Numbered from the stretch's first letter, positions 30,033-47,022 are shown. The stretch is DNA of 64,000 nucleotides from an uncultured delta proteobacterium (GCA_963826785.1 CAWGYD010000006.1:576001-640000); one strand, 5' to 3'. Numbers and translations are program-made. Notes: generated from the letters alone by a model not told the origin.

Positions 30033-32126
30033 TTATTCAATTGATTTCCATTTCGCTTGAAGGCAAGTTCCTTCGCCGATGTTGGATTTGATACTAAATT
30101 GACCGCCGGAAATTTCAACACGCTCCTGCATGCTGGTGAGCCCCAGACCATTTGCGCGATTTTGCAGATTGAAACCGACTCCGTTATCAATGATGCTCAG
30201 CGCGATTGAAGCGGCGGTTTTCGAAATCGATACATGAACCTGGTCGGCCCGGCTGTATTTGGCGATGTTGTTTAACGCCTCCTGGCTCACACGAAAGATG
30301 ACAATCTTAAGTTCCTCGGCAATTTCATTTTCAGAGACATTGAATTCAGTCACCAGCTGATGCAGGGGGTAGATGGTCTGGAAATTCTGACAAAACCAGT
30401 TCATTGTGGCGATGATGCCTTCTGAATCCAAAATAGGCGGGCGAAGCCCGGTGTGGATGGTTCTTGCCTCTTGAATGGCATCCTTGATCAGCGATCCCAG
30501 GAACTCAATGGCCTGAAATGCTTCATCCGGATCATTTCGCGTTGTATCGCGAAGGGCTTTATCGACGCTGAACTTCATCGCCACGAGGGTCTGTCCGATG
30601 CTGTCATGGATCTCGCCTGCAATCCGTTTCCGTTCTTCCTCCTGGGCGGAAAGCAGCCTGGCAGAAAGCTTCCTGAGTTGTTTTTCTGATTGGCCGAGCG
30701 ATCTGGCCACCATCTCCTGTTCAGTAATATCGATGCCCATCTTGAGTACAAGTAGTTTGCCGTCAAAATCCTCAAATGGACGATCATATACCTGATAAAT
30801 TCGGCAGTTCGGGCTGTACCACTTCCAATCTTGAATTATTCCGAAATCAAGGGGCATATTGACCGTGCAATCAGAACAGGGCTGTTTTTCACCCCTGAGG
30901 ATTTCATAGCAGTGCTTCCCTTCGGGGGCGCCGAAAGTCTCCCGGAATGTCCGGTTGGCATAATTAATCGAGTAATCCGGCGCCTGAATATAGACGAAAG
31001 CTGGTATTGCTTCCAATAGCGTGAACAGGCGCAGACGAGCGGAATCCAATTTTTTTTCACGTTTTGAAATTTCCTCCGTCATCTGGTTGAATGCAAATGC
31101 CAGATCCTGTATTTCAGTCGACCCCCGAATGGTCAGCTTTGAATAGGTTGAATTCTGTCCAAATGCCAAGGCCTGTTTTTGCAGCTTCTTCAGTGGCGAT
31201 ACAATTTTTTGTGAAATGAACATGGCGATGGCAAAGACAAAAATCACAAGGATCACCAAAATGCCCGCCTGTCGAACAGATCCGGAGATAATGGGTTGAA
31301 AGACTTGATGAACCGAACGGCTGGAACTGACGATCCATCCATTGAATTCGATTGGCGTCAACGCCACCATCTGATTTTCACCACCCAAAAAATGGGGAAT
31401 CACCGCAGTGACTTCTTTTCCATTCAGCGCAGCCCGGATTGCAGGGTTGGCCTTCAATGCACCCCGGTCTTTCCATTCCCGATGCTTTACCGGATATTCA
31501 AAAATGATGTTCCCTTCCCGGTCAAAAACAGAAATGGTCCGCGTATGATCTTTCTTCTTGCTGAGTAGTTTTCCCAGTTTATCCGGGTATATTGCGGCGA
31601 TTACAACACCGGCAGGCACACCCTTTTGGTCATTGATCCTCCGGCTGACTGCAATGACGGGTTCTTTTGTAATCTTGCAGATGGTCAGGCTGCTGATCGA
31701 CCATTCCTTTCCAGTGAGCGTTTCGTGCAAGTCCGCATGATCCGCAAAATCAATCCCGATCATTGAATCCATGCTCGATGCAACAATGCGGCATTGCGGA
31801 TCTACCCAGGCAAAATTGCGAACTTCGGGGTGATGCCTCAAATTGTCCTTCAGGATTTGATTCATTTGCGAGGGGGTTGGCGGATGCGGAAAGGTCAAGT
31901 GGAGGCCGATGTCGAATTCATGGTGCAGGATGTTGCGCAAATATTCATCAAACGTAGTGCTTACCGCACGCGCCACTTCCAGATTGGCTTGGTATTCATT
32001 GAACTCCCGCTCCTTGTATCGATGGTAGTGGTCAAATCCCTTGATGACCAGAACTGGCACAAGCACCCAAAAAAGTAATAAATACAATTTGCTGCGGATT
32101 GTTCTGAAAGGCTGAAATGCTTTCAT
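30033..32126 (-). CDS. HisKA_3 (NarX/UhpB-type) sensor kinase with Cache, HAMP and Cys-rich PAS
   Basis: AQEEERKRIAGEIHDSIGQ, FRVSQEALNNIAKYS, DNGVGF, GLGLTSMQER; CYEILRGEKQPCSDC. Confidence 0.9.
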   Translation of the reverse strand: MKAFQPFRTIRSKLYLLLFWVLVPVLVIKGFDHYHRYKEREFNEYQANLEVARAVSTTFDEYLRNILHHEFDIGLHLTFPHPPTPSQMNQILKDNLRHHPEVRNFAWVDPQCRIVASSMDSMIGIDFADHADLHETLTGKEWSISSLTICKITKEPVIAVSRRINDQKGVPAGVVIAAIYPDKLGKLLSKKKDHTRTISVFDREGNIIFEYPVKHREWKDRGALKANPAIRAALNGKEVTAVIPHFLGGENQMVALTPIEFNGWIVSSSRSVHQVFQPIISGSVRQAGILVILVIFVFAIAMFISQKIVSPLKKLQKQALAFGQNSTYSKLTIRGSTEIQDLAFAFNQMTEEISKREKKLDSARLRLFTLLEAIPAFVYIQAPDYSINYANRTFRETFGAPEGKHCYEILRGEKQPCSDCTVNMPLDFGIIQDWKWYSPNCRIYQVYDRPFEDFDGKLLVLKMGIDITEQEMVARSLGQSEKQLRKLSARLLSAQEEERKRIAGEIHDSIGQTLVAMKFSVDKALRDTTRNDPDEAFQAIEFLGSLIKDAIQEARTIHTGLRPPILDSEGIIATMNWFCQNFQTIYPLHQLVTEFNVSENEIAEELKIVIFRVSQEALNNIAKYSRADQVHVSISKTAASIALSIIDNGVGFNLQNRANGLGLTSMQERVEISGGQFSIKSNIGEGTCLQAKWKSIE

Positions 32127-32295
32127 GATCGCATGCCTTCTGAATCGGGGTTTATCTGTGTTGCATCGAATTCCTCTCGAGTCGGAGAAAGATTAAGTTA
32201 TTCATATTATGAATTCATATTGTATCAATAGATAATATATTTCAATCATTATTAGTGAGATTAAAAAGATGCATAACTGCGGAAGTGGCTTGGGC

Positions 32296-32310
32296 GCAAC
32301 AACTCTGCCA
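32296..32310 (-). promoter_or_regulatory. Sigma54 promoter toward the HisKA_3 kinase
   Basis: Minus strand TGGCAG-AGTTG-TTGC. Confidence 0.6.
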
Positions 32311-32394
32311 ATTTGCTTATATGAACAGTCGCCTGCCAAATTTTCATAAACCAAATCGATGCAAATCAGGCAAACTGGCTATTTGTTGCCAATC

Positions 32395-32440
32395 TGTGCC
32401 ATGACACACCTGATTTGAACTCATTATGTGTCATGGCACA
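32395..32440. promoter_or_regulatory. Paired enhancer palindromes, copy A
   Basis: TGTGCCATGACACA (32395-32408) and TGTGTCATGGCACA (32427-32440), 32 bp apart. Confidence 0.8.
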
Positions 32441-32550
32441 TCCCCAAATTCCTATTTTCGATCACCTCTACTACCCTTTTTTTTCGTTAACCCATGTAAT
32501 CATAAAGCATTTCTGGGTCATCGCGTTTATTTCCGTGAGTTGTGGCGATG

Positions 32551-32570
32551 TGGCATGGTTCTGGAAATAC
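32551..32570 (+). promoter_or_regulatory. Sigma54-like promoter (degenerate -12) of the copper operon
   Basis: TGGCATGGTTCTGGAAATAC, 16/20 identical to 47383-47402 and at nearly the same distance from the palindromes. Confidence 0.6.
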
Positions 32571-32663
32571 TAAAGGCATGGATGAGAATTGAATGTGAAA
32601 TCAGGTTCCTTCTCGCATTAATTTTATAACCAGATCATTTAGGCTTTTTCCAGGAGGTTGATA

Positions 32664-34145
32664 ATGAAAGTCAATGGTAATTCGGTATACATCAGCATCA
32701 TCCTGGGCTTGATTTGCTATACATCCATATCTTTATTTTCAGGCAAATCCTGGGCGATGCCGGCATTTGCAAGGAAATACCAGACCTCCTGCATTACCTG
32801 CCACAGCACTTTTCCGACATTGAACCCAACCGGGCTGGTTTACTATTTAAATGGATATCAATTTCCGGACAATGAACTCTATTTAAAACAGGAACCGCTT
32901 TACCTCGGCAACGAAGCGTACAAGCGACTCTGGCCCGAAGCCCTGTGGCCGGGTGAAATTCCCCAGTACTTTCCCATCAGCATCATTACCGTGCATGTCC
33001 TGGAGTGGAGTACCGATCCGAGGTACAACCCGCAAACCGGAAAGGATGAATCCGATTTTACGTTCGTGATGCCCCACGAAGTGGAATTGAGTTACGCGAC
33101 CAACCTGGGCGAACAATTTGCCGTATATTCGGATATCCGTTACATCAGCGATGATGACAGCGGTGAGGATTTCTCTTCCTGGGCCATGCTGAAAGCCTGG
33201 CTGATGTACAAGGGCTTATTCGGCCTGGACAATAAACTCCGCCTGACCGTGGGTTCCCTCGGGATGCACACCTTATGCCTTTTTACGGCCCCCGATGAAG
33301 GGGCCCTGACATTTGAAGGATATCTGCTCAACAACTGGGAAATACCGGATTTGAAAAGAGACCGGGATGGCCATGTTCTTCAGGCGGGTATTTCCGAATT
33401 CGAGGGCAATACGTTCAGTCTTCAGCCGCAGTCGGGATTCGAGCTGAGCGGATTTACGAAACGTCTGTTTTATTATGCCGGTGTGGTGAACGGTAACATC
33501 GACCAGGATCCGGGCAACCAGGTTTATTTCGAGGGTACGGGCAAAAATACCGGGACAAAAGATTATTACGGCGGCATGGCCATCAAAATCGGCGGGATCG
33601 GTTTCGACGGATCAGGAACTGAAGACAAGGACCTTACCGCTGCAAAACCCTCTGATTACTGGCGCGATGACAGCCTGACGATATCGCTCTTTGGCTATAG
33701 CGGCACCGGAAGGATAGAATCATCCGTAGACGATTCGGCTCTGGTGTACAGAGATGACGATTTCTGGCGATTCGGGGCGGGTTTCATGCAGCGATACAAG
33801 GATTTGAATCTGGGCGGCGGCATTATGCTGGGAAAAAATGAAGACCCTTATGGCAATTTATCGGATGCGGAGGTGGATTCGACGAGCTGGTTCATTGAAA
33901 GCTACTACTTCATCTATCCCTGGCTGATTCCGTTCGCAAAATATGAGGTGCTGGAATTTGACGACCTTCCGTCCAACTTGATGATCATCGATGCCACAGA
34001 CCGCAGCATCGTCACAGCCGGCGTCAAAGTGCATTTTCGGCCGAACATTACATTGCGGACGGAATATACGTATTACACCGAAGAGGACGGTTTCGACTAC
34101 GGCCGGAACAAGGACGTTTTTTTCGTTCTGAATGCGGCTTTTTAG
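32664..34145 (+). CDS. Outer-membrane beta-barrel with an N-terminal c-type heme motif
   Basis: AGGAGG RBS; signal peptide then MPAFARKYQTSCITCH; amphipathic strands; terminal LNAAF. Confidence 0.8.
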   Translation: MKVNGNSVYISIILGLICYTSISLFSGKSWAMPAFARKYQTSCITCHSTFPTLNPTGLVYYLNGYQFPDNELYLKQEPLYLGNEAYKRLWPEALWPGEIPQYFPISIITVHVLEWSTDPRYNPQTGKDESDFTFVMPHEVELSYATNLGEQFAVYSDIRYISDDDSGEDFSSWAMLKAWLMYKGLFGLDNKLRLTVGSLGMHTLCLFTAPDEGALTFEGYLLNNWEIPDLKRDRDGHVLQAGISEFEGNTFSLQPQSGFELSGFTKRLFYYAGVVNGNIDQDPGNQVYFEGTGKNTGTKDYYGGMAIKIGGIGFDGSGTEDKDLTAAKPSDYWRDDSLTISLFGYSGTGRIESSVDDSALVYRDDDFWRFGAGFMQRYKDLNLGGGIMLGKNEDPYGNLSDAEVDSTSWFIESYYFIYPWLIPFAKYEVLEFDDLPSNLMIIDATDRSIVTAGVKVHFRPNITLRTEYTYYTEEDGFDYGRNKDVFFVLNAAF

Positions 34146-34212
34146 ACGTTTGATCAAGCGGCGCAAACCGGACGATTTTGATGCCCACCGGTGATCCAGA
34201 AGGATAATCAAC

Positions 34213-34890
34213 ATGCGTTTTGCCTTCATATTGACTCTTTTCCTCTTTTGCTTCACACCCGTCTGTCTGGTTCATGCGGCGGAGCCCTGCAAGGACTGCG
34301 GCGCGGTTTCAGGGAAAATCACGGTATGGAAAACCCGGGTCCGGACACAAGGGGCGAGAAACGATCGGGATGTCATTGTCTTTCTTGAGAGGACCGGTAG
34401 CACGAATTTTCCCGCCGTGACAGGCCAGACAATGCATATGGATCAGAAAAACCTCATTTTCATCCCCCATGTCCTGCCGGTCATTAAAGGGAGCACGGTC
34501 AAGTTTTTAAACAGCGACACCGTTGACCACAATGTGTTTCTGCTTTTTGAAAAAACCGGGGAAAGCCTGGACCTGGGGACCTGGGGACAGGGAAAGACCA
34601 CCGAATACCTGTTCAATGAAGCCGGCGTCACCATTGTGCTCTGTAAGCTTCACCTGGAAATGGCCGCTTATGTGGTGACCATGGAAAACCCGTTCTTTTC
34701 CCAGGCTGGAATTGATGAAAGCGCGCAGTCCGCAGAATATTCCATAGCCAATGTCCCGCCCGGTTCATATGTCCTTCATGCATGGCACAAAAAGCTGAAA
34801 ATGAAGGAAGGTCCCGTGCATGTCACTGTTGAAAAGGATCACGTCACCCAAGTGGATATAACGATAACCAAAGCCAAATATGCGCAATAA
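34213..34890 (+). CDS. Secreted cupredoxin-like protein with a type-1 Cu motif and beta-sandwich flanks
   Basis: Signal peptide; MDQKNLIFIPHVL, FLNSDTVDHNVF, CKLHLEM (C-x2-H-x2-M), VPPGSYVLHAWH. Confidence 0.8.
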   Translation: MRFAFILTLFLFCFTPVCLVHAAEPCKDCGAVSGKITVWKTRVRTQGARNDRDVIVFLERTGSTNFPAVTGQTMHMDQKNLIFIPHVLPVIKGSTVKFLNSDTVDHNVFLLFEKTGESLDLGTWGQGKTTEYLFNEAGVTIVLCKLHLEMAAYVVTMENPFFSQAGIDESAQSAEYSIANVPPGSYVLHAWHKKLKMKEGPVHVTVEKDHVTQVDITITKAKYAQ

Positions 34891-34936
34891 GGGACTTGGG
34901 TGAATCTGATTTCGCGCATGTTTTTGCGGACTCTGC

Positions 34937-36850
34937 ATGATGGACAAGAAAAAAACCGTGGCAGTCAGTATCTTTCTCAGCTGTGTTTTTGCAGCCATAT
35001 GCTTTTCAGCGCCGTTTACCGAACCCCAAAGGGAAAAAAAAGACATAACGATTATTGCCAGAAGATACGCATATGCGCCGAACCGGATCATTGTGAACAA
35101 GGGGGATTTAGTTCGCATAAAACTGGGGTCAGTGGATGTCGTGCACGGTTTTTTCCTGGAAGGCTACGATATCGAAGCGGAGATTCACCCCGGAAAAATT
35201 CCGTTCAAGATCCGCCATCCGTCATTTGAATCTGAATTTTCATATGTGGATGAAATATCATTTACGGCCGATCGATCCGGCAAATTCCGCTATCGGTGCT
35301 CCGTCACATGCGGCACGCTTCATCCGTTTATGATCGGAGAACTGATCGTTCGGCCCAACTATTCCTTCTATGCGTGCATCGGGGGGCTCATCGGCGTCTT
35401 TGCCGCCTTTTTATTCTTCGTCTCCGCCGATCTCCGGAGTACGGCCGCGCCGGTTCTTCCGCGCCGGCCTTTTCGCCTCGATCTTTTCAAGACCATGCCG
35501 CGCCTGAAGCGGCTCATGAGCAACCGCGTCTTTCAGTTCACACTGATCCTGGTCAATCTGGCGGCGCTGGTTCTCTTTATCTTTGCCGGATTTTTCGGGT
35601 CCCCCATCGGCAACCACAACATCATCATCACGGTGGTGTGGATCTTCTGGTGGTTTGTGCTGGTCACCTTCATGATCCCTTTCGGGTCGCGCATATGGTG
35701 CATGGTGTGCCCCTTCCCCTTCTTCGGGGAATGGTTTCAGCGGCGCAAACTGCTCGGGCCATCCAACACGAATAGGAGCAAGTTAAAGGGATTTCAAAAA
35801 ATATGGCCGAAAAAATTATCCAATATGTGGATACAGAATATCCTGTTTCTTAGTCTTTGCACCTTCAGCACGATCCTGGTCACCCGGCCAGTAACCACCG
35901 CCGCAGTCCTGATGGGGCTGACCCTAACGGCCACAATCTTCCACATGGTATTCCGCCGCCGAACATTCTGCCGATACATATGCCCGATCGGCGGCTGGAT
36001 GAGTTTATACAGCAGGGCGGCCGTGGTTGAAATCCGTTCCATCAGCAATGGGGCTTGTAAAGGATGCGGTTCAAAAGCGCTGATTGACAACGGCAGGGCC
36101 TGGGGGTGTCCCTGGCTGATCAACCCGGGAAAAATGGACAGCAACAGCAACTGCGGCATGTGCATGGAATGCATCAGTTCATGCCCGAACAGCAATATGA
36201 CACTGCGGCTGAGACCTTTTTGCTCGGATACGGCGATTGACAGGTGTGACGAAGCCTGGATGGGGTTTATCATGATCACCCTTGTGATTCTCTATACTGC
36301 GATTTTTCTCGGGCCTTGGGGAACGATAAAGGAATGGGCCAATATTACGGAAATGGGCAACGTGAAAGGTTTTTTGATCTATTGCGGAATTATCTGGACC
36401 AGCAGCTTGATGATCCTCCCGGCGGTGTGGTTTGCAGCCGCAGGGTTGTCCAAATCACTTTCCGGTTCCAGTGCAGTCGATGTGAAAACCATCTTTATCA
36501 AATATTCCTACGTACTGGTCCCCCTGGGGCTGCTCGGTTGGATTTCGTTCAGCATCCCGCTTTTCATGATCAATTATACACATATTATCGCAACCCTGTC
36601 CGATCCGATGGGATGGGGATGGGATATTTTCGGGAATGCGCATACCCAGTGGCGGCCGGTGCTGCCGGAGTACATCCTCTACATCCAGGTGCCGCTGGTA
36701 TTGACCGGATTGGGTTACGCCTTGATAAAGAGCTATGAGATTTCAAAAAACCTCTACCCCGACGGTGCTCAGGCAGTCCGCAGCCTGATCCCGTTTGGAT
36801 TCCTTTGTACGCTGATATCCATCGTGCTGATATGCCTTTATGCGGGGTAA
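34937..36850 (+). CDS. CuA-cupredoxin fused to a NapH/NosH-like membrane polyferredoxin
   Basis: DVVHGF...CSVTCGTLHPFM (CxxxCxxxHxxM); RIWCMVCP, FCRYICPIGG, CKGC, GCPW, NCGMCMECISSCP; many TM helices. Confidence 0.85.
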   Translation: MMDKKKTVAVSIFLSCVFAAICFSAPFTEPQREKKDITIIARRYAYAPNRIIVNKGDLVRIKLGSVDVVHGFFLEGYDIEAEIHPGKIPFKIRHPSFESEFSYVDEISFTADRSGKFRYRCSVTCGTLHPFMIGELIVRPNYSFYACIGGLIGVFAAFLFFVSADLRSTAAPVLPRRPFRLDLFKTMPRLKRLMSNRVFQFTLILVNLAALVLFIFAGFFGSPIGNHNIIITVVWIFWWFVLVTFMIPFGSRIWCMVCPFPFFGEWFQRRKLLGPSNTNRSKLKGFQKIWPKKLSNMWIQNILFLSLCTFSTILVTRPVTTAAVLMGLTLTATIFHMVFRRRTFCRYICPIGGWMSLYSRAAVVEIRSISNGACKGCGSKALIDNGRAWGCPWLINPGKMDSNSNCGMCMECISSCPNSNMTLRLRPFCSDTAIDRCDEAWMGFIMITLVILYTAIFLGPWGTIKEWANITEMGNVKGFLIYCGIIWTSSLMILPAVWFAAAGLSKSLSGSSAVDVKTIFIKYSYVLVPLGLLGWISFSIPLFMINYTHIIATLSDPMGWGWDIFGNAHTQWRPVLPEYILYIQVPLVLTGLGYALIKSYEISKNLYPDGAQAVRSLIPFGFLCTLISIVLICLYAG

Positions 36851-36920
36851 AGAGAGGCCCCGCGCAAAGGAACCGACCAATGGATGATGATAGATAAGCA
36901 GTTTTATCCCTGACGAAATT

Positions 36921-37928
36921 TTGATCATGCCGATAAAGGAAAAAATTGCCGCAATGTGCGTCCTGGCGATCATAACCAGCATCCCGCTCGGGATATTGAT
37001 TTACCAGTATGTGCTTATCCCTTCCGCGTATCACGCCGGAGAAAAGGTGTTCAATATTACAGCGGTCGCTGAACCCAGCGGCGCATATACACTCGAGGCG
37101 ATAAACGGACTGAACTACTGGTGGAAACGCTTTGCCCCCATGACGCTGCAGTTAAACGTCGGGGACCGGGTGGTCTTGAATCTGAAAAGCGCGGATGCGA
37201 CCCATCAGTTTTATATTCCGGAACTCAATCTCGATCCGGTTACCGTGACGCCGGGCAGGGTGGCCCAATTATCGTTTGTCGCCGAAAAAGAAGGTATCTT
37301 TCAATATTTCTGCACCACCATGTGCGGCGACTGTCATACGTTCATGACGGGATGGATTGTCATTTCATCAGGCGAAAAGCAGCTCGATGCCCCCCATCCG
37401 ATTGTCTGCCCGTTATGCGTTCCGGATTTCGGCGCGCCGCCCCAAACCGACCTGGTTGATCTGGGCGAATACCTTTACCAGAAACTGGGGTGCGTGGGAT
37501 GCCATGGATGGCGCGGGAAAGGCGGCGTCCGGAACCCGAATTACGCCAAACAATCTGTTCCGGCGCACAATACCACAGCAGATAAGCTGTTTTTGCGAAC
37601 AAAAGCGGACGCCGATCAATTCGTCCGGTGGCTGTCTGATAATGAAGAAAGCCGACCATCAGAAGAAACGCCGCGTATCGCCATGTTCAGTGTCGTTCTA
37701 TCACGTTACACCGCGTTGAAAAGTATAGGCAGATCCGGGAGCATACCGGAAAAACTGGACAAGAACGGGCCTGAACCTCCCCTCTGGATGCCCGCATGGA
37801 TGCACCGGCTCAGCGATCGCGAACTGGATGCGATCATCGCATATTTTATCAGCCTGAAAACATGGGATGATGACGAAGCGGAGGAAGATTTGTTTTCACA
37901 GGTTGATCGAGGCGCAAATATATCTTGA
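36921..37928 (+). CDS. Membrane-anchored CuA-cupredoxin plus cytochrome c (CoxII-like fusion)
   Basis: One N-terminal TM; DATHQF...CTTMCGDCHTFM; CPLC; GCVGCHG; distal MPAW. Confidence 0.85.
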   Translation: MIMPIKEKIAAMCVLAIITSIPLGILIYQYVLIPSAYHAGEKVFNITAVAEPSGAYTLEAINGLNYWWKRFAPMTLQLNVGDRVVLNLKSADATHQFYIPELNLDPVTVTPGRVAQLSFVAEKEGIFQYFCTTMCGDCHTFMTGWIVISSGEKQLDAPHPIVCPLCVPDFGAPPQTDLVDLGEYLYQKLGCVGCHGWRGKGGVRNPNYAKQSVPAHNTTADKLFLRTKADADQFVRWLSDNEESRPSEETPRIAMFSVVLSRYTALKSIGRSGSIPEKLDKNGPEPPLWMPAWMHRLSDRELDAIIAYFISLKTWDDDEAEEDLFSQVDRGANIS

Positions 37929-38004
37929 ATTTTCATTTATCTTCATCTTTACAGACCCGCGTAGGTAAAGATGACGAGATCAAATCTTCAAAAAAAAGGA
38001 ACCT

Positions 38005-38292
38005 GTGATGAATCTCACAATCCCGGAAGCAATCATCAGTGAAACGTCAAAATGCGAGCATGATTTTTCCTGTCTCAAATCCGGTCAGCAGGTTAAAAGA
38101 CCGATCTGCCCGGTAGACTATGCCAATGGCCGCAATGTCATTTTTCTTAAAACGGATGAGCCGATCCCTTGTCACTACCAGATCCCGTTTGGATACGGAA
38201 TGGTATGCAGATGCCCCACCCATTTTGAACTTCACAAGAAAGGCAGGGAGCAGAAAACACCGCCGGCGCCGATATCGGAAACAAAGCGTTGA
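38005..38292 (+). CDS. Small Cys-rich hypothetical protein
   Basis: AAAGGA RBS; six Cys including CEHDFSCL, CPV, CHY, CRCP. Confidence 0.7.
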   Translation: MMNLTIPEAIISETSKCEHDFSCLKSGQQVKRPICPVDYANGRNVIFLKTDEPIPCHYQIPFGYGMVCRCPTHFELHKKGREQKTPPAPISETKR

Positions 38293-38326
38293 GCAGATCA
38301 TTACACAATCGGAAAAGGGTTCTGTT

Positions 38327-38626
38327 TTGAAAAATAAACTGTTTATCGGGCTGGTTTTGATTCAGTGCGCAATCCTGGTTTTTTTGCTGATCGACAATGT
38401 GATGACCGCAAAAGCACTTGAACCGAAATTTATCTTAAATGGCCGACTGGTCAAGGATTTGATGATAACCGACCTGGCACTGTGGAGCGAAGCCCGGTAC
38501 ACGCGCCATCCCTCACAGGCCGATATTTTTTCTCCGTTTCAGGATTTTCCGGGAGCGCCGGAACATTTCCCGTCCGGATCGATTATCGGGCCGCCCGGCA
38601 TGCTATCTGCCGGACTGACGGAGTAG
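38327..38626 (+). CDS. Small membrane-anchored hypothetical protein
   Basis: Probable TTG start; TM helix, then TDLALWSEARYTRHPSQADIFSPFQDFPGAPEHFPSGS; ends 3 bp before the permease. Confidence 0.65.
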   Translation: MKNKLFIGLVLIQCAILVFLLIDNVMTAKALEPKFILNGRLVKDLMITDLALWSEARYTRHPSQADIFSPFQDFPGAPEHFPSGSIIGPPGMLSAGLTE

Positions 38627-38629
38627 CAG

Positions 38630-39814
38630 ATGTATAAGCATCTTATGATCATGGAATTTGCCTTGTCATCGCTGTACAGGCGAAAATACAAGAATCTGCT
38701 GATGCTTGCCGTGTATTCCCTTGTCGTTTTTCTCCTGTCCTCCCTGGTCCTTTTGACCGATTCCCTGAAAACAGAAGCGGTCATGCTGACGCAGGAATCC
38801 CCCCAGTTGATCGTCCAGCGGCTGAAAGGCGGTCGCCATGATCTCATTTTGCGGGAATATGCCGCAAAAATCCACGAAATCAGGGGCGTTGATCGGGTGT
38901 CCCCCCGATTCTGGGGATATTATTTTGATCCGGCAACCCGGTCCAATTACACGTTCTGGGGTGCAGATGAAATGGGCCAGGATTTAAAATGGCTGGAGCA
39001 GGGCGAATTTTCCGGCAATTTCACCGGTCGGCGAAAAGAGGACCAGACGCTTCCGTGCATCATCGGCCAGGGCATTGCCGACCTTCGTTTCATCGGCATC
39101 GATGATTTGATCCCGGTGATGGGGTCCGACGGGAACCTCTATGTCCTAAAGGTATCCGGGGTTTTCAATCCAAATTCGTCCATACTGACCAATGACATGA
39201 TCGTCATGGGGATCGATACGATAAAGACCCTGTTTGAGATTCCGGAAAACATGGCAACGGATATCGCGGTGTATGTCAGAAATCAGCGGGAAACCGATAT
39301 GATCGGGCGAAAAATCCAGCAGCTTTTCCCCTCCGTGAGAATTATCACCAAACAGCAGATCCAGAATACATATAAAGCGCTGTTCAGCTGGCGGAGCGGT
39401 TTGATGGCGGCCCTTCTGCTCAGCTCCATTGCCGCTTTCGCCATTTTAACCTGGGATAAAGCGTTGGGGGCCACCGACTATGAAAAAAAGGAAATCGGAG
39501 TCTTAAAGGCAGTCGGTTGGAATACGGCCGAGGTGCTGGAACTGAAATTCTTTGAAGGGGCAGCCATATCGGCAACCGCTTTTCTGACGGGCCTGATCTT
39601 TGCCTGCGTCCACGTGTTTTATGCCGGGGGCATCCTTTTTGAACCGGTTTTAAGGGGATGGTCGGTCCTGTTCCCGAAGCTGAAGCCGCTTCCGGTCATC
39701 GATATTTATAACCTTTTGGCCATCTGGTTTCTTTCGGTGGTGCCCTATATGGCCTCCACCATTATTCCGTTCTGGAAAACGGCGGTGACCGACCCCGAAA
39801 TGGTGATGAAGTAA
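38630..39814 (+). CDS. ABC transporter permease, FtsX/MacB-like
   Basis: TM1, periplasmic domain, KKEIGVLKAVGW, three C-terminal TMs. Confidence 0.88.
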   Translation: MYKHLMIMEFALSSLYRRKYKNLLMLAVYSLVVFLLSSLVLLTDSLKTEAVMLTQESPQLIVQRLKGGRHDLILREYAAKIHEIRGVDRVSPRFWGYYFDPATRSNYTFWGADEMGQDLKWLEQGEFSGNFTGRRKEDQTLPCIIGQGIADLRFIGIDDLIPVMGSDGNLYVLKVSGVFNPNSSILTNDMIVMGIDTIKTLFEIPENMATDIAVYVRNQRETDMIGRKIQQLFPSVRIITKQQIQNTYKALFSWRSGLMAALLLSSIAAFAILTWDKALGATDYEKKEIGVLKAVGWNTAEVLELKFFEGAAISATAFLTGLIFACVHVFYAGGILFEPVLRGWSVLFPKLKPLPVIDIYNLLAIWFLSVVPYMASTIIPFWKTAVTDPEMVMK

Positions 39815-39823
39815 ACGAGACTG

Positions 39824-40306
39824 ATGATGAAAAACAAAACGCACCCCGGCGGCGCAAATGTAATGTCCATATCGATTTCCGGCCTGCTGATGATCTATTT
39901 GGTGATGGCCCTGACGGGATGCACCCGGAGTGCGCCGGAGTATGAACTGGTGGCGCCTGAAGACGGCCGGATCTGCATCCGGACAGCTGCGGTCAATGAC
40001 CACCACGTTCATTTCTTCACCTATCGAAATAACGACAAAAATATCAATTTTTTCGTTCGGACCGACGGCAAGGGAAAACTGCACACCCACTATGACGCAT
40101 GCTACAGCTGTTACAAGTATAAACGGGGGTTTGTAGTGAATGGCGATCATATCCGGTGCATTGCCTGCAACCTTGAATATAGGCTTTCAGATGAGTTCTG
40201 GGATTATGTCGGCGCCTGTGCGCCCATTCCCCTGAGCAGTGTAATTCAAAACGATTTAATTGAAATCAGGCTCAGTGCGGTTCAAAAAGGGGAGAAGCTG
40301 TTTTAG
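39824..40306 (+). CDS. DUF2318-like Cys-rich (Fe-S/metal-binding) lipoprotein
   Basis: LTGC lipobox; DACYSC, CIACN, GACAPIPL. Confidence 0.8.
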   Translation: MMKNKTHPGGANVMSISISGLLMIYLVMALTGCTRSAPEYELVAPEDGRICIRTAAVNDHHVHFFTYRNNDKNINFFVRTDGKGKLHTHYDACYSCYKYKRGFVVNGDHIRCIACNLEYRLSDEFWDYVGACAPIPLSSVIQNDLIEIRLSAVQKGEKLF

Positions 40307-40358
40307 GGCAACCTTAAAGACGATTTGTTTTTTAAATGCTTAAAAAGGGAGGCGAAAA

Positions 40359-40850
40359 ATGAAAAAAAGGATAACCGGAATTGCGGCGCTTTTCATCTTG
40401 TGTGTTTTTCCGTTGCACCTATTTGCGGCCGGTCCAGGCGAGGCCAATGATATCGGCGCATTTCCTTTCTGCAACGACTGCGGAATGGACCGGGAAATGT
40501 TTTCCAACTCCCGAATGCTAATCGAGTACGAAGATGGCAGTGCGGCCGGCATGTGCTCCATACACTGTGCGGCTGTCAATATGATCCGCAAGCCCACCGG
40601 TCGAATCATGGTGGGGGATTACCACACGAAAAATCTGATCGATGCGGAGACCGCCACCTGGGTGATCGGCGGAAATCAAGCCGGCGTAATGACGATAAAT
40701 GCCAAGTGGGCCTTTGAAAGCGAACCGGACGCCCGGGCATTTGTCCAGGCGCACGGCGGGACCATCGCCACATTCGACGATGCCTTAAAGGCGACTTTTG
40801 AAGAGATGTATGAAGATGTCAAAATGATCCGGAACAAACGGCGGCACTAA
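40359..40850 (+). CDS. nosL: NosL-family copper chaperone-like protein 1
   Basis: Signal peptide; CNDCGMDR, CSIHC, LIDAETATWVIG, GVMT, WAFESEPDARAF...HGG. Confidence 0.8.
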   Translation: MKKRITGIAALFILCVFPLHLFAAGPGEANDIGAFPFCNDCGMDREMFSNSRMLIEYEDGSAAGMCSIHCAAVNMIRKPTGRIMVGDYHTKNLIDAETATWVIGGNQAGVMTINAKWAFESEPDARAFVQAHGGTIATFDDALKATFEEMYEDVKMIRNKRRH

Positions 40851-40864
40851 GACAAAAGGGTACT

Positions 40865-41365
40865 ATGGAAATGGCGGGTTTGAAAAACGTTAAAATGGCC
40901 GCATGCACATCCATCCTGCTGTTTTTCTGCGCCTGGCCGATCAACGCCGGCGAATTTGACATGCCGGTAAAACCGGCGCCGGGGGATAAATGCATCGTGT
41001 GCGGGATGTTTGTTGCCCAATATCCCGACTGGACCGGTGAAATCATCTTTAAAGACGGACAGGTGCTGTTTTTTGACGGCTGCAAGGACCTGTTCAGATA
41101 TCTGTTCGACATGAAGAAATACAGCCCGGAGAAAGCGCGCTCCGACATTTCGGCCATTTTTGTGACCCAGTACTATGATGTGTCGTTTATCGATGCCGCC
41201 GGCGCCTGTTATGTCGCGGACAGCGATGTGTACGGCCCCATGGGGCGTGAACTCATTGCGCTTCAGAGCGCATCTGATGCCCGGATTTTTTTAAAAGACC
41301 ACAGGGGAAAACAAATCTACCGGTTTAATGAGATTACCCCCGAACTGGTTGAGGGGCTGGATTAA
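40865..41365 (+). CDS. nosL: NosL-family copper chaperone-like protein 2
   Basis: CIVCGMFV, FFDGCKDLF, IDAAGACYV...SDVYGPMG.ELI. Confidence 0.83.
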   Translation: MEMAGLKNVKMAACTSILLFFCAWPINAGEFDMPVKPAPGDKCIVCGMFVAQYPDWTGEIIFKDGQVLFFDGCKDLFRYLFDMKKYSPEKARSDISAIFVTQYYDVSFIDAAGACYVADSDVYGPMGRELIALQSASDARIFLKDHRGKQIYRFNEITPELVEGLD

Positions 41366-41392
41366 AATCGTGCCATCAGAAGGCAGGCAAAA

Positions 41393-42112
41393 ATGATTGA
41401 ACTGAAAAACGTGGTCAAACGCTACCCGACGGTGAAGCACCCGGACCGATTCGAGCAGGGTCACCGGCGCCGCACAAATGCGGTTGAGGGGATCAGCCTG
41501 AACATTGAAAGAAACGGGACCACTCTGATTGTGGGGGCAAACGGTGCCGGCAAAACGACGCTTTTGAGCATCATCGGCGGGATGACCCGGCCCACGAGCG
41601 GACGGGTCATCATTGCTGGCAGGGACATCTCCAGTCTCCCGGAACATTTTTTATCCGATATCCGCAAAACGCATTTCGGGTTTGTCTTTCAGAACAATCA
41701 ACTGATCCATGGGATTTCGGTCATTGAAAACATCATGGTTCCGGCATACACGTCGGGCCGAAAGCCGGCCCACCTGAAACAGCAGGCCATGGCGATCCTT
41801 GAGAAGTTCAACATCGGATTTCTGGCAAACCAGAAGATCGAAAACATTTCCGGCGGAGAGCAGCAGCGGGTGGCCATCGCCCGGGCGCTGATCAATGATC
41901 CGGAAATCATTGTTGCCGATGAGCCCACGGCCCACCTGCATCCGGATTTGACCGCTATGTTTTTGAAAACGGTTGCCGACCTGATCCGTGAAGGAAAAAC
42001 CGTCATTATCAGCAGCCATGATGCCCAGCTGGCAAATTCAGCAATCATCGAGCGGGTCATCGAACTGGCGGAAGGGAAAGTGGCCCGCGATGTGCAAATT
42101 TTGCCGAATTGA
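41393..42112 (+). CDS. ABC transporter ATP-binding protein (LolD-like)
   Basis: GANGAGKT, ISGGEQQRVAIARAL, ADEPTAHL, SSH. Confidence 0.93.
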   Translation: MIELKNVVKRYPTVKHPDRFEQGHRRRTNAVEGISLNIERNGTTLIVGANGAGKTTLLSIIGGMTRPTSGRVIIAGRDISSLPEHFLSDIRKTHFGFVFQNNQLIHGISVIENIMVPAYTSGRKPAHLKQQAMAILEKFNIGFLANQKIENISGGEQQRVAIARALINDPEIIVADEPTAHLHPDLTAMFLKTVADLIREGKTVIISSHDAQLANSAIIERVIELAEGKVARDVQILPN

Positions 42113-42122
42113 GGCAGAATGA

Positions 42123-43118
42123 ATGATTACTGATCCGGCCATCATCGGGCTGATGTTTACGGCCATTACCGGCGCCTGTTTTTTGATATACGCATCGGGC
42201 ATCGGCGTTCGGATCATCATCGGCTGGGACATGAAAAACGGGGATGAACGGCAGCTCCTTCTGGAGCGGAAAACCTGCCTCATTTCCGTGATCCTGTATT
42301 ATGTGATGCTCTGCGAATTTCTTTCCCTGTTCCTGTTTGTCTTTATTGCCGAAGACATCCATTCCCTGTTTATCGGCGCCATGTGCGCGGCCGGAACTTT
42401 AAATGTCAATGGGTTCGGATGGCCCGGATTGTTAATCAAGCTGATCAATCTCGTGTTGTGCGGCATCTGGCTGATCACAAATTATGTGGATAACAGAGGC
42501 TATGATTACCCGCTGATTCGGTTCAAATACAAATTTTTGTTGATCATCACCCTGCTGGTGGTCTGTGAAACCGCTTTGCTGTTTAGCTATTTTACCCGGC
42601 TTTCGCCCGAGATTATCACCTCCTGCTGCGGCACGCTGTTCAACGAAGACGCCCGAAGCGTTGCCGGACAGATTGTCTCGCTTCCAATGATTGAAACCAG
42701 CACGATATTTTACCTTTTGGTGGCGCTGACCGCTGGCACGGGCATTTATTTCTGCAGGACCGAAAAACTGGCCGGTGTATTCTCCGGGTTGAGCATCATG
42801 GTGCTGCCCGTCGGCCTGGCATCGATTCTATCGTTTATCTCGGTCTATTTTTATCAGCAGCCCACCCACCACTGCCCGTTTTGCCTTCTGAAAAAAGAAT
42901 ACCATCATGTGGGGTACATTCTTTATCTGGCATTATTTACCGGGGGCGTGGCGGGTGCCGGGACCGGCATCATCGATCGTTTTAAAACCCATGTCTCCAT
43001 TGAAAAAGTCGTGCCGAAGATCCAGAAACAGTTGTGCCGCGTTTCCCTTATCGGGTACGGCCTGTTTGTGGGGATATCCGCCTGCCCCATCCTGTTTTCC
43101 GATTTTATGCTCCGATGA
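42123..43118 (+). CDS. Polytopic membrane protein with Cys/His motifs
   Basis: Multiple TM helices; GAMCAAG, ITSCCG, PTHHCPFC. Confidence 0.8.
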   Translation: MITDPAIIGLMFTAITGACFLIYASGIGVRIIIGWDMKNGDERQLLLERKTCLISVILYYVMLCEFLSLFLFVFIAEDIHSLFIGAMCAAGTLNVNGFGWPGLLIKLINLVLCGIWLITNYVDNRGYDYPLIRFKYKFLLIITLLVVCETALLFSYFTRLSPEIITSCCGTLFNEDARSVAGQIVSLPMIETSTIFYLLVALTAGTGIYFCRTEKLAGVFSGLSIMVLPVGLASILSFISVYFYQQPTHHCPFCLLKKEYHHVGYILYLALFTGGVAGAGTGIIDRFKTHVSIEKVVPKIQKQLCRVSLIGYGLFVGISACPILFSDFMLR

Positions 43119-43388
43119 TCGATTGCCCGGATTCAGGGGGGTTTCCGCAAGGGAGACCTTTCGGATGGAACGGGGCCGGCCTGCCGCCGGAACGGCCGGG
43201 CCGTTATCCCGATGATAAAACTTGTTCCACAACCCCGCGCATACGGCCAAGCCGCCTGCGCCGACGCATCCAAAACAGGAGAAGCAGTTTCCGCCGCCGC
43301 ACTGCAGCACCTGAATCGCCCCCATGAACAGGGCGGCGATAAACACCTTCGCCTGAACGCCGCTACATTCTTTCTTTTTCAAATGCAT
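42933..43388 (-). CDS. Possible small Cys-rich membrane protein with a run-on tail
   Basis: AGGAGG RBS before ATG 43388; TM-like stretch then CGGGNCFSCFGC; the 3' part overlaps the convergent gene by 186 nt. Confidence 0.45.
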   Translation of the reverse strand: MHLKKKECSGVQAKVFIAALFMGAIQVLQCGGGNCFSCFGCVGAGGLAVCAGLWNKFYHRDNGPAVPAAGRPRSIRKVSLAETPLNPGNRSSEHKIGKQDGAGGYPHKQAVPDKGNAAQLFLDLRHDFFNGDMGFKTIDDAGPGTRHAPGK

Positions 43389-44241
43389 TCCTCCTGTTTT
43401 CGCGTTGTATAAGCACCTTGCGTGAATATGAAACCGCCCTGCCGGGGCATATGGATTCACAAATGCGGCAGGGCATGCAGGACAGCGGGTCAATCCGGGC
43501 GGTGTCCGTCACCTGGATCGACCAGGTCGGACATACGGATACGCATTTTCCGCATCCACTGCACTTGTCCGCGCACACATGAACCCGTTTTCCGAATGTG
43601 ATGCCAAGTCTGTTGGATAGCGCATCCAGGGCGCCGATGGGGCAGATCAGGTTGCAATAGGCCCTTCCGCCCTTTGCCAGAAAGCCCATCAGCAGCACCA
43701 GGCCAAGGTTCAGCAGTCCTGCGGTTCTGAAGAAATAGGCCAGGTCTGCCGGCGAGAACACGGCGCCCAGCATTCGTGGAAGCGTCGCAAAATTGCAATA
43801 GCTGCAGCAGAGACTGCCGATGCCGAGCGCGGATGCCAGAAAATAGACGGACAGGTATCCGTATCTAAATGACGGGGCCGGAATCCTGGAATAATCAATT
43901 TTCAGGCGTTCGGGCGCGATTTTGCTGCCCAACTCCATGCCGGCGCCCACCGGGCAAAGGTGGCTGCACCAGTATCGACCGAAAAAAAACGTGGAAACCA
44001 GGACCCCGGATACCAATGCCACGCCCATATAGCTTCTCAAAAACCCTGAAAAATATGTTTCCGCCGACATGCCGCTTCGCCACACAAAAAACATCCGGGG
44101 GCACCACGTACCGCAAAAATTGCTGTCGCCGGTGAACTGAAACAGAAATGAAAGCGGCGGCATGAACAGCACTATCGCCGCTGCCATAAACCAGTAGCGG
44201 TTCCGGGCAATAAAAGATCGGTTATTCGGGATGCCAGCCAT
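43363..44241 (-). CDS. Membrane 4Fe-4S binding protein (NapH-like)
   Basis: FCGTWCP, GRYWCSHLCPVG, LCCSYCN, YCNLICPIG, CSGCGKCVSVCP, CMPCRICESICP. Confidence 0.88.
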   Translation of the reverse strand: MAGIPNNRSFIARNRYWFMAAAIVLFMPPLSFLFQFTGDSNFCGTWCPRMFFVWRSGMSAETYFSGFLRSYMGVALVSGVLVSTFFFGRYWCSHLCPVGAGMELGSKIAPERLKIDYSRIPAPSFRYGYLSVYFLASALGIGSLCCSYCNFATLPRMLGAVFSPADLAYFFRTAGLLNLGLVLLMGFLAKGGRAYCNLICPIGALDALSNRLGITFGKRVHVCADKCSGCGKCVSVCPTWSIQVTDTARIDPLSCMPCRICESICPGRAVSYSRKVLIQRENRRNAFEKERM

Positions 44242-44842
44242 TTTCTTTCTCCGGGTTCGTAAAAATCAAAGGAACAGTCAAAATCGGTTTACCAGTCGCC
44301 GCATCATAGAAAGCCAGATGGTATCTGCCCTGAATAGAGGGTTTCAGAAAACCGGTCTGGCTATCCGAAGCATTTCCATTTATGAACTTCTTCAGGAAGG
44401 GAAAAATTTCAGAAAAACCGCCGGCAAGTTCTGCCGGCCGGGGGATATTTTCGTCAATGGCACTGCTGGAAGCCGGTTTGATCAGCGTCCATAGCGACAG
44501 CCGGTCTCCGGCTCTCAGGTCGTATAAAATATCTTGCCGCAGTTCGGGGGTCCGGCGAAAACCCATATCAATGACGGGCCTGGAAAGATAAATCTCGTAG
44601 TCCAATTGCGGCGACCCCACCAGTGCAACGCGGGCAGCGCCCTGAAAAGACGGGAGCACGGTTACGGTGGTGATCTGCGAATAATGCCCCTTCCCGCCTT
44701 CCATGACGGCCGGGTGACGGACTGCGCCGCCGGTTGCGGAGATGACGCCGATGGCATGGCCGGAGTCTCCCCACCGGTGGACGGCAAGCAGGCCACTGAC
44801 CAGGACCGCCAGTGAAAAATAGACAAGGTTTTTCAGCTTCAT
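44222..44842 (-). CDS. Membrane-anchored/periplasmic hypothetical protein
   Basis: N-terminal hydrophobic segment then HRWGDSGH; coupled between the TonB receptor and the ferredoxin. Confidence 0.72.
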   Translation of the reverse strand: MKLKNLVYFSLAVLVSGLLAVHRWGDSGHAIGVISATGGAVRHPAVMEGGKGHYSQITTVTVLPSFQGAARVALVGSPQLDYEIYLSRPVIDMGFRRTPELRQDILYDLRAGDRLSLWTLIKPASSSAIDENIPRPAELAGGFSEIFPFLKKFINGNASDSQTGFLKPSIQGRYHLAFYDAATGKPILTVPLIFTNPEKENGWHPE

Positions 44843-44853
44843 TTTGCCCCCTT

Positions 44854-47022
44854 TCAGAATCGGTACGTCAACCGGATCATGAAATTTCGCGGGGCCGCGG
44901 GACAGTATCGGACCACGCCGCTGGTGTCCTTTTCCACCTCGACCGCGTAGTGCCGGTCAAAAACGTTTTCCACGATGACGGCCGCCTCATAGGTGTTCTT
45001 TTCATATCCAACCATCGCATGGGTGATGAAATCATAGCCCTTGTATTTTTCTGTATTGGCGTTGTCGATGTAATAGGATCCCCAGGACAGCGTCTGCAGC
45101 CGGACCCGGAAACCGCTGGGATGCCGGTAGGCCGAAAACAGGGAATATTGATGTTCCGGGATAAAGGGGAGCGTATTGCCGCTGCGGTCCACATTGAGGG
45201 TGGCGTTTTCCATCCGCACCGGCTCCGAGAATTCGTCAAATGTGTAATCGGTATAGCTGTAGGTCAGGCCGGTCTGAAGCTCCGGGGTCACAAAAAAAGA
45301 CCCGGACCATTCGAATCCGATCTTGTCGGTTCTGCCGGCATTCACGTAGGCTTTGTAGCCATCCTGCTGAACCACCTGGATGACTTCATGTTCAACCGGC
45401 AGGTAGTAAACCGCCGCATCCATCACCCAGCGCAGGCGATCGGCCTTAAGGCCGAGTTCATAATTTCTGACCGTAACCAGGTCCAGGTCCGGATTTTCCG
45501 TCAACTCCCCTTCCGTCGGGGTTTGAAATCCCTGTGAAAAATTGCCGTAAAAATTGATGACTTCATTGAACTTGAACAGTATCCCCAGGCGGGGGCTGAA
45601 CGAATTGAACGTTTTGTCGATGTCTTCCATGTCAGAGGCCGGGACATATTGCCCCCTGGCCCAGTCATAGGTTTCCGTTCGGCTGCCGGAGATATCAAAG
45701 CAGGTTTCATCAAAGCGGAGTCCCGCATCGATGATCCATCGAGGCGATGGCCGAAATGATTCCTGGGCATAAATGCCGTACAACACAACATTTCGATCCT
45801 GGGTTTCAATTTTTTCCCCTTTTTCATCCGACAAAACTTTTGCAATCCGGTTTCCCGGGCCGGTGATAAAATCCCGGTACTTGAAATAATCGGTATCCTG
45901 GTCGTCCATCCGGGAAGTGACCCCGAACGACAGCGTGCCGTCCATCCCGGATATGCTGTGCACCTGATTGACCTGGATATCCGTTCCCCAGGTAATCGTG
46001 TCGGCTACATTTATCCGTCCGGTGATGGGATGATCATGGGACCAGAAGTTGCCGTACAGCAGGGGCGATATCGTAAATTGACCGATATCTGCTGATAATC
46101 TGGAATTGAAAAAAAAGATTTCCGAATACCGTCCGGAAAACTGCCACGGCCCATCGGTTTGCCTGGCGCGCCCGGTCTTTTTGTATTTATCGAACATCTC
46201 CGGGTCGAGTTTTCCGGGCAGCTGAATGCGCGCATCCGTATAACCGAAAAAATTCTCCCAGCGGGTGCCACTCTCCGACCCCGCCGCTGTCTGCACAGAT
46301 CCCTGGTTGATCTCAAATTTATTCCAGCGCCGCCAGGAGTTGCTGGCCTCTCTTCGGCTGCCGCTCAAGGTATAATAAAGAGACTCCCTGGCGTTATCTG
46401 AATAAGACAAGTGATAATTTCGGGTATCATAATCCCCTGCGCCGATTTCGGCGATTCCCCCTTTCATCTCAAAAGGACTCTTGGGGATGATATTGATCAC
46501 CCCGCCGGCCGCGTTTGCTCCCCATAGTGTTGAATTGGGCCCTTTGACCACTTCCACCTGTTTGATCAATTGCGTATCGATAAAATCAAGCCGGGTGAGA
46601 CTGTCGGGATCCGTAATGGGGACGCCGTCGAAAAGGACCATGATGTCCCGGACGCCGTAATTGGCTTTCAAGCCGGCCCCCCGGATGAGAATGCGCGAAT
46701 CATACCCCTGATTTTCGGATTCGATGAGCACCCCCGGCATGCCGGCAAGGATCTCTTTGATGTTAAACATTTTCGAATCCCGTATTTTATCCTCATCTGC
46801 GACTTCCATACTGGCGGGCACCTCGGATTGAGGCCTTTCCATGCGTGTGGCGGTTACAACGATCGGCGAAAGTTTATACACCATCGATCCGGATTCATCT
46901 TCAGAGGCAAAGACTTCCGGTGATTGGAATATGAAGGGGGTTAAGGTGGCAATGAATACGAAAATCAATATAAGGGGATGAAGTTTAAATATTCGAAACC
47001 AATTGATAACGCCCAAGTTCAA
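44854..47022 (-). CDS. TonB-dependent receptor
   Basis: IVVTATR TonB box/plug start, IRG, VEVVKGPNSTLWG..AAGGVINII, ENVFDRHY, terminal YRF. Confidence 0.93.
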   Translation of the reverse strand: MNLGVINWFRIFKLHPLILIFVFIATLTPFIFQSPEVFASEDESGSMVYKLSPIVVTATRMERPQSEVPASMEVADEDKIRDSKMFNIKEILAGMPGVLIESENQGYDSRILIRGAGLKANYGVRDIMVLFDGVPITDPDSLTRLDFIDTQLIKQVEVVKGPNSTLWGANAAGGVINIIPKSPFEMKGGIAEIGAGDYDTRNYHLSYSDNARESLYYTLSGSRREASNSWRRWNKFEINQGSVQTAAGSESGTRWENFFGYTDARIQLPGKLDPEMFDKYKKTGRARQTDGPWQFSGRYSEIFFFNSRLSADIGQFTISPLLYGNFWSHDHPITGRINVADTITWGTDIQVNQVHSISGMDGTLSFGVTSRMDDQDTDYFKYRDFITGPGNRIAKVLSDEKGEKIETQDRNVVLYGIYAQESFRPSPRWIIDAGLRFDETCFDISGSRTETYDWARGQYVPASDMEDIDKTFNSFSPRLGILFKFNEVINFYGNFSQGFQTPTEGELTENPDLDLVTVRNYELGLKADRLRWVMDAAVYYLPVEHEVIQVVQQDGYKAYVNAGRTDKIGFEWSGSFFVTPELQTGLTYSYTDYTFDEFSEPVRMENATLNVDRSGNTLPFIPEHQYSLFSAYRHPSGFRVRLQTLSWGSYYIDNANTEKYKGYDFITHAMVGYEKNTYEAAVIVENVFDRHYAVEVEKDTSGVVRYCPAAPRNFMIRLTYRF

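Follow-up and report, generated by a model that had tools for sequence, protein, structure and literature searches.

CuA has been known chiefly as the site where electrons enter oxidases and N2O reductase. In Acidithiobacillus ferrooxidans's rus operon (cyc2-cyc1-cup-coxBACD-rus), the gene for Cyc2 stands first; further genes encode a type-1 copper protein, a cytochrome c and a subunit with a CuA site, and Cyc2 is described as handing its electrons to a blue copper protein and an oxidase with CuA (PMC13741234, PMC10654088). Here, I describe a cassette of twelve genes (g1 to g12) whose layout echoes that operon, since its outer-membrane end belongs to the known family Cyc2. The cassette lies at positions 32664-43118 of a 64,000-nucleotide stretch of DNA (hereafter, the window) from an uncultured delta proteobacterium (contig C6, 576001-640000, of the genome labelled G000; G and L numbers denote other genomes and related loci, respectively), with all genes on the + strand and intergenic gaps of 3-79 bases. 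It is a genuine, conserved and so far uncharacterised variant of the Cyc2 conduit; no title or abstract start describing it was returned by literature searches, most subscription papers and supplements being outside their scope.

Unlike the rus operon, the cassette has no oxidase subunit I and two CuA domains, its chain ends on a membrane polyferredoxin, its type-1 protein combines a short amicyanin-like loop with an extra domain, a NosL/FtsX module replaces the cta genes, and the host is a dsrAB-bearing anaerobe (G000, 88% complete, has dsrA; the nearest relatives of its cassette carry the labels Desulfobacteraceae and Desulfococcus). The preferred reading, to which I assign a probability of roughly 0.55, is a conduit in which copper centres carry electrons between the quinone pool and the surface of a diderm anaerobe, endowed with its own copper-supply module. 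If true, CuA would be put to a new use here, in two domains that stand alone and are tied to a membrane polyferredoxin. Cyc2 serves as a genomic marker for iron oxidation, the role of distant homologues in organisms not known to oxidise iron being presented as an open question (PMC8406198); its presence in sulfate reducers and Acidobacteriota with complete, conserved partners and no linked oxidase makes that question testable. Cyc2 is also described in Mn oxidisers, without copper partners in the text consulted (PMC9040806). What is added here is a modular comparison, a copper-island alternative, the observation that canonical CuA chaperones are mostly not found, and a candidate extra site in g4.

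The four redox genes and their relatives

A first-pass annotation of the window had proposed four adjacent redox genes with characteristic motifs, and all of them are present. The outer-membrane beta-barrel with a CxxCH that it listed, without naming the family, corresponds to g1 (32664-34145, + strand, 493 aa), which, judging from its motif and its AlphaFold2 model, is a Cyc2-family monohaem cytochrome-porin. The family definition of Keffer et al. comprises a single CXXCH preceded by AXPXFAR[Q/K][T/Y] and followed by PXL, more than 365 aa and a 16-strand porin, and the same source reports iron-oxidising activity for three representatives and a potential of +208 mV for Cyc2PV-1 (PMC8406198). 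In g1, a hydrophobic segment (residues 7-25) precedes the motif AMPAFARKY-x3-CITCH-x3-PTL (at residue 31, AMPAFARKYQTSCITCHSTFPTL, with spacers QTS and STF), and the fused porin is modelled with a mean predicted local distance difference test score (pLDDT) of 87.6 and 16 counted barrel strands. Signal peptide, motif, single CXXCH, PXL, length and strand number are thereby shared with Cyc2PV-1, A. ferrooxidans Cyc2 and Leptospirillum Cyt572, the FARKY start resembling the YPGFARKY reported for Cyt572. The haem motif (C43/C46/H47) is invariant in 81 aligned homologues; among 107 homologues, the CxxCH is single in 104, and 90 of the 107 carry a relaxed version of the Cyc2 motif. Foldseek matches are general porins, and PDB sequence searches with g1 returned no relative. 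At one locus, two tandem Cyc2 paralogues stand ahead of the cassette (L096:4242-7270).

The secreted type-1 copper protein of the first-pass annotation is likewise borne out in g2 (34213-34890, + strand), a predicted cupredoxin with a C-terminal beta-sandwich and weak Pfam matches. Its ligands His106, Cys144, His147 and Met150, invariant in 78 aligned sequences, follow the type-1 pattern His...Cys-x2-His-x2-Met with a short loop (C-x2-H-x2-M); plastocyanin is the best PDB match (E 0.0024), and the plastocyanin/amicyanin alignment is weak. A complex of g1 and g2 predicted with haem scored 0.04 against a mark of 0.32 and is not used as evidence.

The third gene (34937-36850, + strand; COX2 and Fer4_5 matches) encodes an apparent fusion of a periplasmic CuA domain with a NapH/NosR/CcoG-like membrane polyferredoxin. 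Its CuA ligands (H70/C121/C125/H129/M132) are arranged as His...Cys-x3-Cys-x3-His-x2-Met in a cupredoxin fold, Thermus CuA domains being the best PDB matches (E 1e-11), and are followed by some ten further hydrophobic segments (about 11 overall), a CxxCP, a CxxxCP and two ferredoxin-type Cys groups, whose conservation was assessed across 88 homologues. The earlier description as CuA plus a NapH/NosH-like polyferredoxin stands for all these elements, but not for the third Cys of the first ferredoxin motif (residues 374-391, window ~36056-36110), which is absent here as well as in L005, L006, L096, L099 and L128; in many Chloroflexota copies, the second position of that motif is His. Against a NapH/NosH pattern of two CxxxCP and two complete 4Fe-4S motifs, this copy thus has CxxCP plus CxxxCP and 7 of 8 cluster cysteines, and its napH match (E 7e-9) reaches 35.6 bits vs a family cut-off of 213.

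Membrane core, CxxxCP-type motifs and two ferredoxin-type Cys groups are shared by g3 with NosR/NirI and NapH/NosH/MauN; unlike these, g3 has CxxCP as its first motif, about five extra C-terminal helices and no NapG/NosG partner gene. NosR carries a flavin mononucleotide domain, where g3 has its periplasmic CuA, and has a regulatory role. The cupric reductases CcoG/YccM are also membrane proteins with two iron-sulfur (FeS) clusters and comparable Cys motifs (PMC7558416), a likeness of motifs alone; g3 has no C-terminal Ig domain but a CuA at its N terminus, and ccoNOQP is not its neighbour. A quick tree sets the Cyc2-type g3 proteins apart by a branch (27 rows, support 89; 26 rows, support 99); the cassette label there also covers short contigs that show no Cyc2 and were assigned from their g4 type. 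Genes of the g3 type were also seen downstream of an octahaem cytochrome, a trihaem cytochrome and a cytochrome b (L183:4057-9660), and beside two reductive-dehalogenase-family genes (L024:2048-11884).

As proposed in the first pass, g4 (36927-37928, + strand; COX2 and Cytochrom_C matches) joins a CuA domain (H93/C129/C133/H137/M140) to a class I cytochrome c (C189xxCH, M288) behind an anchor helix. Its model (pLDDT 89.2) is closest in fold to subunit II of caa3 oxidase (2yev_B), with which it shares membrane anchor, CuA and cytochrome c, the CuA domain being common to NosZ too; it differs from both in having one anchor helix, no linked subunit I and additional loop and linker cysteines, and all its CoxB and NosZ family scores are below cut-off. 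A close relative, P0108, is named in NCBI as a Desulfoluna limicola protein. The additional cysteines are Cys136 in the CuA loop and C161xxC164 in the linker (residues 129-164). A linker Cys occurs in 52/52 g4 sequences with the extra loop Cys and in 0/12 without it, kin among them not being independent; the linker of those 52 has CxxC in 37, Cys then His within 1-4 residues in 11, and another arrangement in 4. This covariation fits an extra metal site or a disulfide and, at the level of sequence, suggests a metal site. A haem on the CGDCH inside the CuA loop was considered and judged unlikely: two CuA ligands would be lost to it, and the covariation ties the extra Cys to the linker Cys.

Distribution and modular build

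The synteny tally comprises 46 loci with this g4 type, drawn from genomes and metagenome contigs, some probably redundant, the weak match L132 having been dropped. Wherever at least 4.5 kb of upstream DNA was available (13 loci), g1, g2 and g3 accompany g4; FtsX and FtrD are present in 16 of the 17 loci with at least 2.3 kb downstream, and NosL and g12 in 10 of 14 long loci. Hosts belong to Desulfobacterota and Acidobacteriota (named ones being Desulfobacteraceae, Desulfurivibrionaceae and Thermoanaerobaculia), and in G717, a genome in one contig, the gene order of the cassette is the same except that g5 is missing. Comparison of g1-g4 with L005 indicates purifying selection (non-synonymous divergence, dN, 0.16-0.26; synonymous divergence, dS, 1.5-2.4 and near saturation). 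The cassette is rare: no g4 match was found in 400 other genomes sampled from the phylum, a relative of g4 gave strong matches (E <1e-60) in 5 of 400 genomes from the order, and g3 in one of 24 from the family. The GC content at third codon positions (GC3) is 0.54-0.67 over window positions 30033-47022 vs 0.80-0.81 in flanking genes; together with the patchy distribution among same-family genomes, this suggests horizontal acquisition of that segment.

Had homologous clusters consistently flanked nosZ or an oxidase subunit I, the first-pass annotation would have regarded the genes as a displaced accessory cluster; neither gene lies beside the cassette in any of the 46 loci. Since, moreover, the four redox genes stay together in 13 of 13 loci, the cassette is no nos remnant. 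Searches for the NosZ propeller came back negative for G000, G401-G405, G717 (a single contig), G535, G664 and G598, and the same search detected nosZ somewhere in 24 of 43 non-cassette genomes with a g3 core (48 genomes covered, 24 positive; 50 of 80 loci submitted; built-in controls without the family). The NosD family is absent from four of five genomes, with one weak unlinked match in G000 (a 995-aa frame on another contig), and a multicopper/NirK-type domain is absent from G000, G717 and G535 and present in G401 and G403. In place of the NosF/NosY system that goes with nosD in nos clusters, the cassette has an ABC system of LolD/FtsX type. As the first pass had stated for the window, no nosZ, nosD, nirK or subunit I gene lies by the cassette; elsewhere in G000 there are two unlinked heme-copper oxidase subunit I genes, one bo3-type and one cbb3-type. 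A COX1-family gene is present in 3/5 and 4/5 related genomes (two sets), and no heme-copper oxidase was found in the cassette genomes G401, G403 and G535, the last 99% complete. Two apparent nosZ genes were discarded, a frame in L061 that turned out transposase-like and a flag in L005 raised by the CuA domain of g3; L093 served as reference, since the longest frame of L092 is not NosZ.

Judged from gene content, the cassette is composed of three modules: Cyc2 with its type-1 cupredoxin; CuA-polyferredoxin with CuA/cytochrome c; and NosL/FtsX/LolD/FtrD/g6/g12. A g1 profile matches 17 of 400 phylum genomes, and in each of the nine best loci with downstream DNA a cupredoxin directly follows Cyc2. 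Rieske, cytochrome b and multihaem cytochrome c genes come next in six of the nine, all of one family, and multihaem cytochromes in one, so that the front pair appears to go with interchangeable quinone-linked modules. The six (L152, L154, L155, L157, L158 and L159) read Cyc2, type-1 cupredoxin, unknown protein, Rieske, cytochrome b, multihaem cytochrome c, the last with 8 haem motifs where whole and scores above the ExtS and SoxX cut-offs. A PCYCGC-CuA-polyferredoxin-CuA/cytochrome c module is widespread across L010-L084, mostly in Chloroflexota, also in Actinomycetota and one archaeon, and frequently has copper-homeostasis genes around it.

Proposed electron flow and competing explanations

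Gene content, ligand conservation, folds, synteny and the lack of linked terminal enzymes are what the loci display; were the metal sites occupied and the partners in contact, a route could run as follows. Menaquinol or a cytoplasmic FeS donor would reduce the membrane polyferredoxin of g3 and then its CuA; electrons would pass to the CuA and haem c of g4 and on to the soluble cupredoxin g2, which would hand them to the Cyc2 haem and, via the porin, to some small redox partner in solution, such as chelated Fe or Mn. Of the chain formulated in the first pass (quinol, FeS, CuA, haem/type-1 copper, outer membrane), the association of its parts is upheld by synteny and by the Cyc2-cupredoxin pair preceding Rieske/cytochrome b elsewhere, while copper binding, carrier order and direction stay inferred. 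CuA and type-1 sites lie near +250 mV and menaquinone near -75 mV. With these values and the potential of Cyc2PV-1, flow from quinol to the outside would be downhill; as some carriers also lack an oxidase for incoming electrons, I lean towards the outward direction. Outward flow to a high-potential acceptor is thus slightly favoured and holds the larger share of the probability given to the conduit, a tentative proposal when taken by itself; a somewhat smaller one goes to inward flow, in which electrons taken from Fe(II) would reach an unlinked oxidase and, on a branch through g3, move uphill. It is possible, albeit doubtful, that the cassette stands for an undescribed route of extracellular electron transfer, in which free-standing CuA, part of no oxidase or N2O reductase, would link the quinone pool of anaerobes to a Cyc2 that reduces dissolved metals of high potential, one CuA loop bearing a third metal site of Cys/Cys/(Cys or His) type.

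Several points weigh against the conduit. The strict Cyc2 motif is found in only 54 of 107 g1 homologues and is degenerate in L007, and Keffer et al. call the function of distant Cyc2 homologues uncertain (PMC8406198). The FeS centres of g3 would be on the cytoplasmic side, going by a hydropathy count, with the route to the periplasmic CuA unexplained, and the copy studied here lacks one cluster ligand, as seen above. Furthermore, 75 other loci, most of them from Chloroflexota, have the g3+g4 core, usually as split genes, but no Cyc2 (the triad in 64, a PCYCGC gene in 59), and the Cyc2-cupredoxin pair may precede sensor genes. Finally, NosL serves CuZ, not CuA, in N2O reductase (PMC7558416).

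The strongest competitor, which I consider unlikely though far from negligible, is a machine for copper acquisition or tolerance, a context that the first-pass annotation did not consider: a CcoG-like g3 would feed a chain reducing Cu(II) in the periplasm or at the porin, the cupredoxins would act as relays or stores, and NosL, the ABC system, FtrD, g12 and an optional TonB receptor would move Cu(I). If Cu(II) were the acceptor, this explanation would overlap with the conduit. CcoG, with two FeS clusters, reduces Cu(II) (PMC7558416), and g3 has the same kinds of Cys motifs; six of the twelve cassette genes are metal-trafficking-like, a TonB receptor module flanks three of the 46 loci besides this one, and an extra Cys/His metal site may lie beside the g4 CuA. 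Pointing the same way, to copper handling and so against the conduit, P-type ATPase, CopC, HMA or DUF305 genes stand in 20 of the 75 Cyc2-less loci, a figure with no random-locus baseline; a P-type ATPase frame occurs in 11 of the 75, of Cu(I) type by motif in seven (a cluster count of 17 took in partial and opposite-strand frames, and gave way to the 11 loci that have a DKTGT frame). Yet no CopA/CopC-type gene is among the recognised neighbours in Cyc2-type loci, whose g3 proteins separate in the tree; the Cyc2-cupredoxin pair is also combined with Rieske/cytochrome b, which has no copper-trafficking role, and in L129 the four redox genes are retained although the accessory module is missing.

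Far less probable is a redox-sensing relay in which Cyc2 and the cupredoxins would report the outside redox state to membrane sensors with little flux. It would account for the two of nine loci (L153 and L156) where the Cyc2-cupredoxin pair directly precedes HAMP-PAS and dCache histidine-kinase genes, for the dCache kinase divergent from g1 here, for the kinases flanking L106, L181 and L182, and for the resemblance of g3 to NosR, a protein with a regulatory role; it agrees poorly with the lack of any signalling domain in g1-g12, with L005 and L178/L179, beside which there is no kinase, and with the cost, since two CuA sites, a haem and a supply module of their own would be much to invest in a sensor. 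Slightly more improbable still, and largely refuted as regards nosZ, is a displaced electron-delivery or maturation cluster, or a remnant of one, belonging to an N2O reductase or heme-copper oxidase encoded elsewhere. CuA, NosL and NosH-like domains do all occur in nos clusters, the g4 fold is closest to caa3 subunit II, G000 has the bo3-type and cbb3-type genes, nosZ is frequent in non-cassette genomes with the g3 core, and one Cyc2-less locus, L021, has an oxidase subunit I about 7 kb upstream. This explanation is at odds, however, with the ten cassette genomes searched in vain for the NosZ propeller, with the 46 loci free of an adjacent nosZ or subunit I, with the three genomes where no oxidase was found, with the LolD/FtsX type of the ABC system, and with genes that are intact and under selection.

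Accessory genes and surroundings

Under the preferred reading of a conduit, the two NosL proteins, FtsX/LolD, FtrD, g6 and g12 most likely would deliver copper to the three cupredoxin domains. Among the five cassette genomes searched, Sco was not found in three, nor PCuAC in any of the five, which makes this module the obvious candidate supplier. The first pass had recognised most of it: two NosL proteins, an FtsX protein (weak, below the Pfam cut-off), a LolD-type ATPase, DUF2318 and the HHCPFC protein are there, but g5 and g6 were overlooked and the order given was wrong, the actual one being FtsX, DUF2318, NosL, NosL, LolD, HHCPFC. Pfam and NCBIfam have no model for g1, g5, g6 or g12, and the Atlas offers automatic names alone. 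All on the + strand, the genes are g5 (38008-38292), a 94-aa Cys-rich protein, optional and otherwise found only in L005 (62% identical; dN 0.32 vs dS 1.37); g6 (38327-38626), a 99-aa membrane-anchored protein with an EARYTRHPS motif, present in most cassette loci and belonging to the accessory module; g7 (38630-39814), an FtsX/LolCE-type permease by matches below cut-offs, accompanied by g8 in 16 of 17 loci long enough; g8 (39824-40306; PF10080, E 1e-18), an FtrD-like (DUF2318) probable lipoprotein with two CxxC, its Cys/His residues conserved in 13/13; g9 (40359-40850; CxxCGM and CSIHC; PF05573, E 1e-12) and g10 (40865-41365; CxxCGM; E 2e-31), NosL-family proteins scoring 48.8 and 109.3 bits vs a gathering score of 24; g11 (41393-42112), a LolD/MacB-type ABC ATPase, not of NosF type (best NCBIfam match LolD, below cut-off); and g12 (42123-43118), a predicted 8-helix membrane protein with conserved MC, CC and HHCPFC motifs and no family.

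NosL proteins in a cassette without NosZ call for caution in annotating denitrification genes. Nor is the label nos-like, given to the accessory genes in the first pass, sustained: a second, divergent set of NosL, small protein, FtsX, LolD and HHCP membrane protein genes lies at C3:336424-341334 of G000, with no copper enzyme recognised beside it. This set is about 15 kb from an alternative-complex-III-like and cbb3-type cluster. YtkA/CtaK is a CuA assembly factor. The version without the NosL/ABC module (L129:1884-3979) has a weak YtkA-like match, below cut-off, and a rubrerythrin-like gene inserted.

The idea that copper centres take the place of multihaem wires does not hold in this organism, as G000 also has a multihaem-porin cluster; located at C1:264584-290594, it is a large multihaem cytochrome cluster with a 656-aa candidate porin. 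Divergent from g1, a sensor histidine kinase assigned by Pfam (dCache-HAMP-PAS-HisKA_3; 30033-32126, - strand) is a possible regulator, with a GC3 of 0.54, low like that of the cassette; it is not upstream in L005. Scans for promoters, terminators and sigma-54 sites gave results at chance level. Convergent to the cassette lies an optional companion (43363-47022, - strand) made of a TonB-dependent receptor, a 206-aa protein and a NapH/YccM-like 4Fe-4S membrane protein, the receptor module adjoining the cassette also in L005, L007 and L114. Farther along the window, a choice-of-anchor O protein is encoded at 47825-51568, homologues of which also flank the cassette in L008, L009 and L179.

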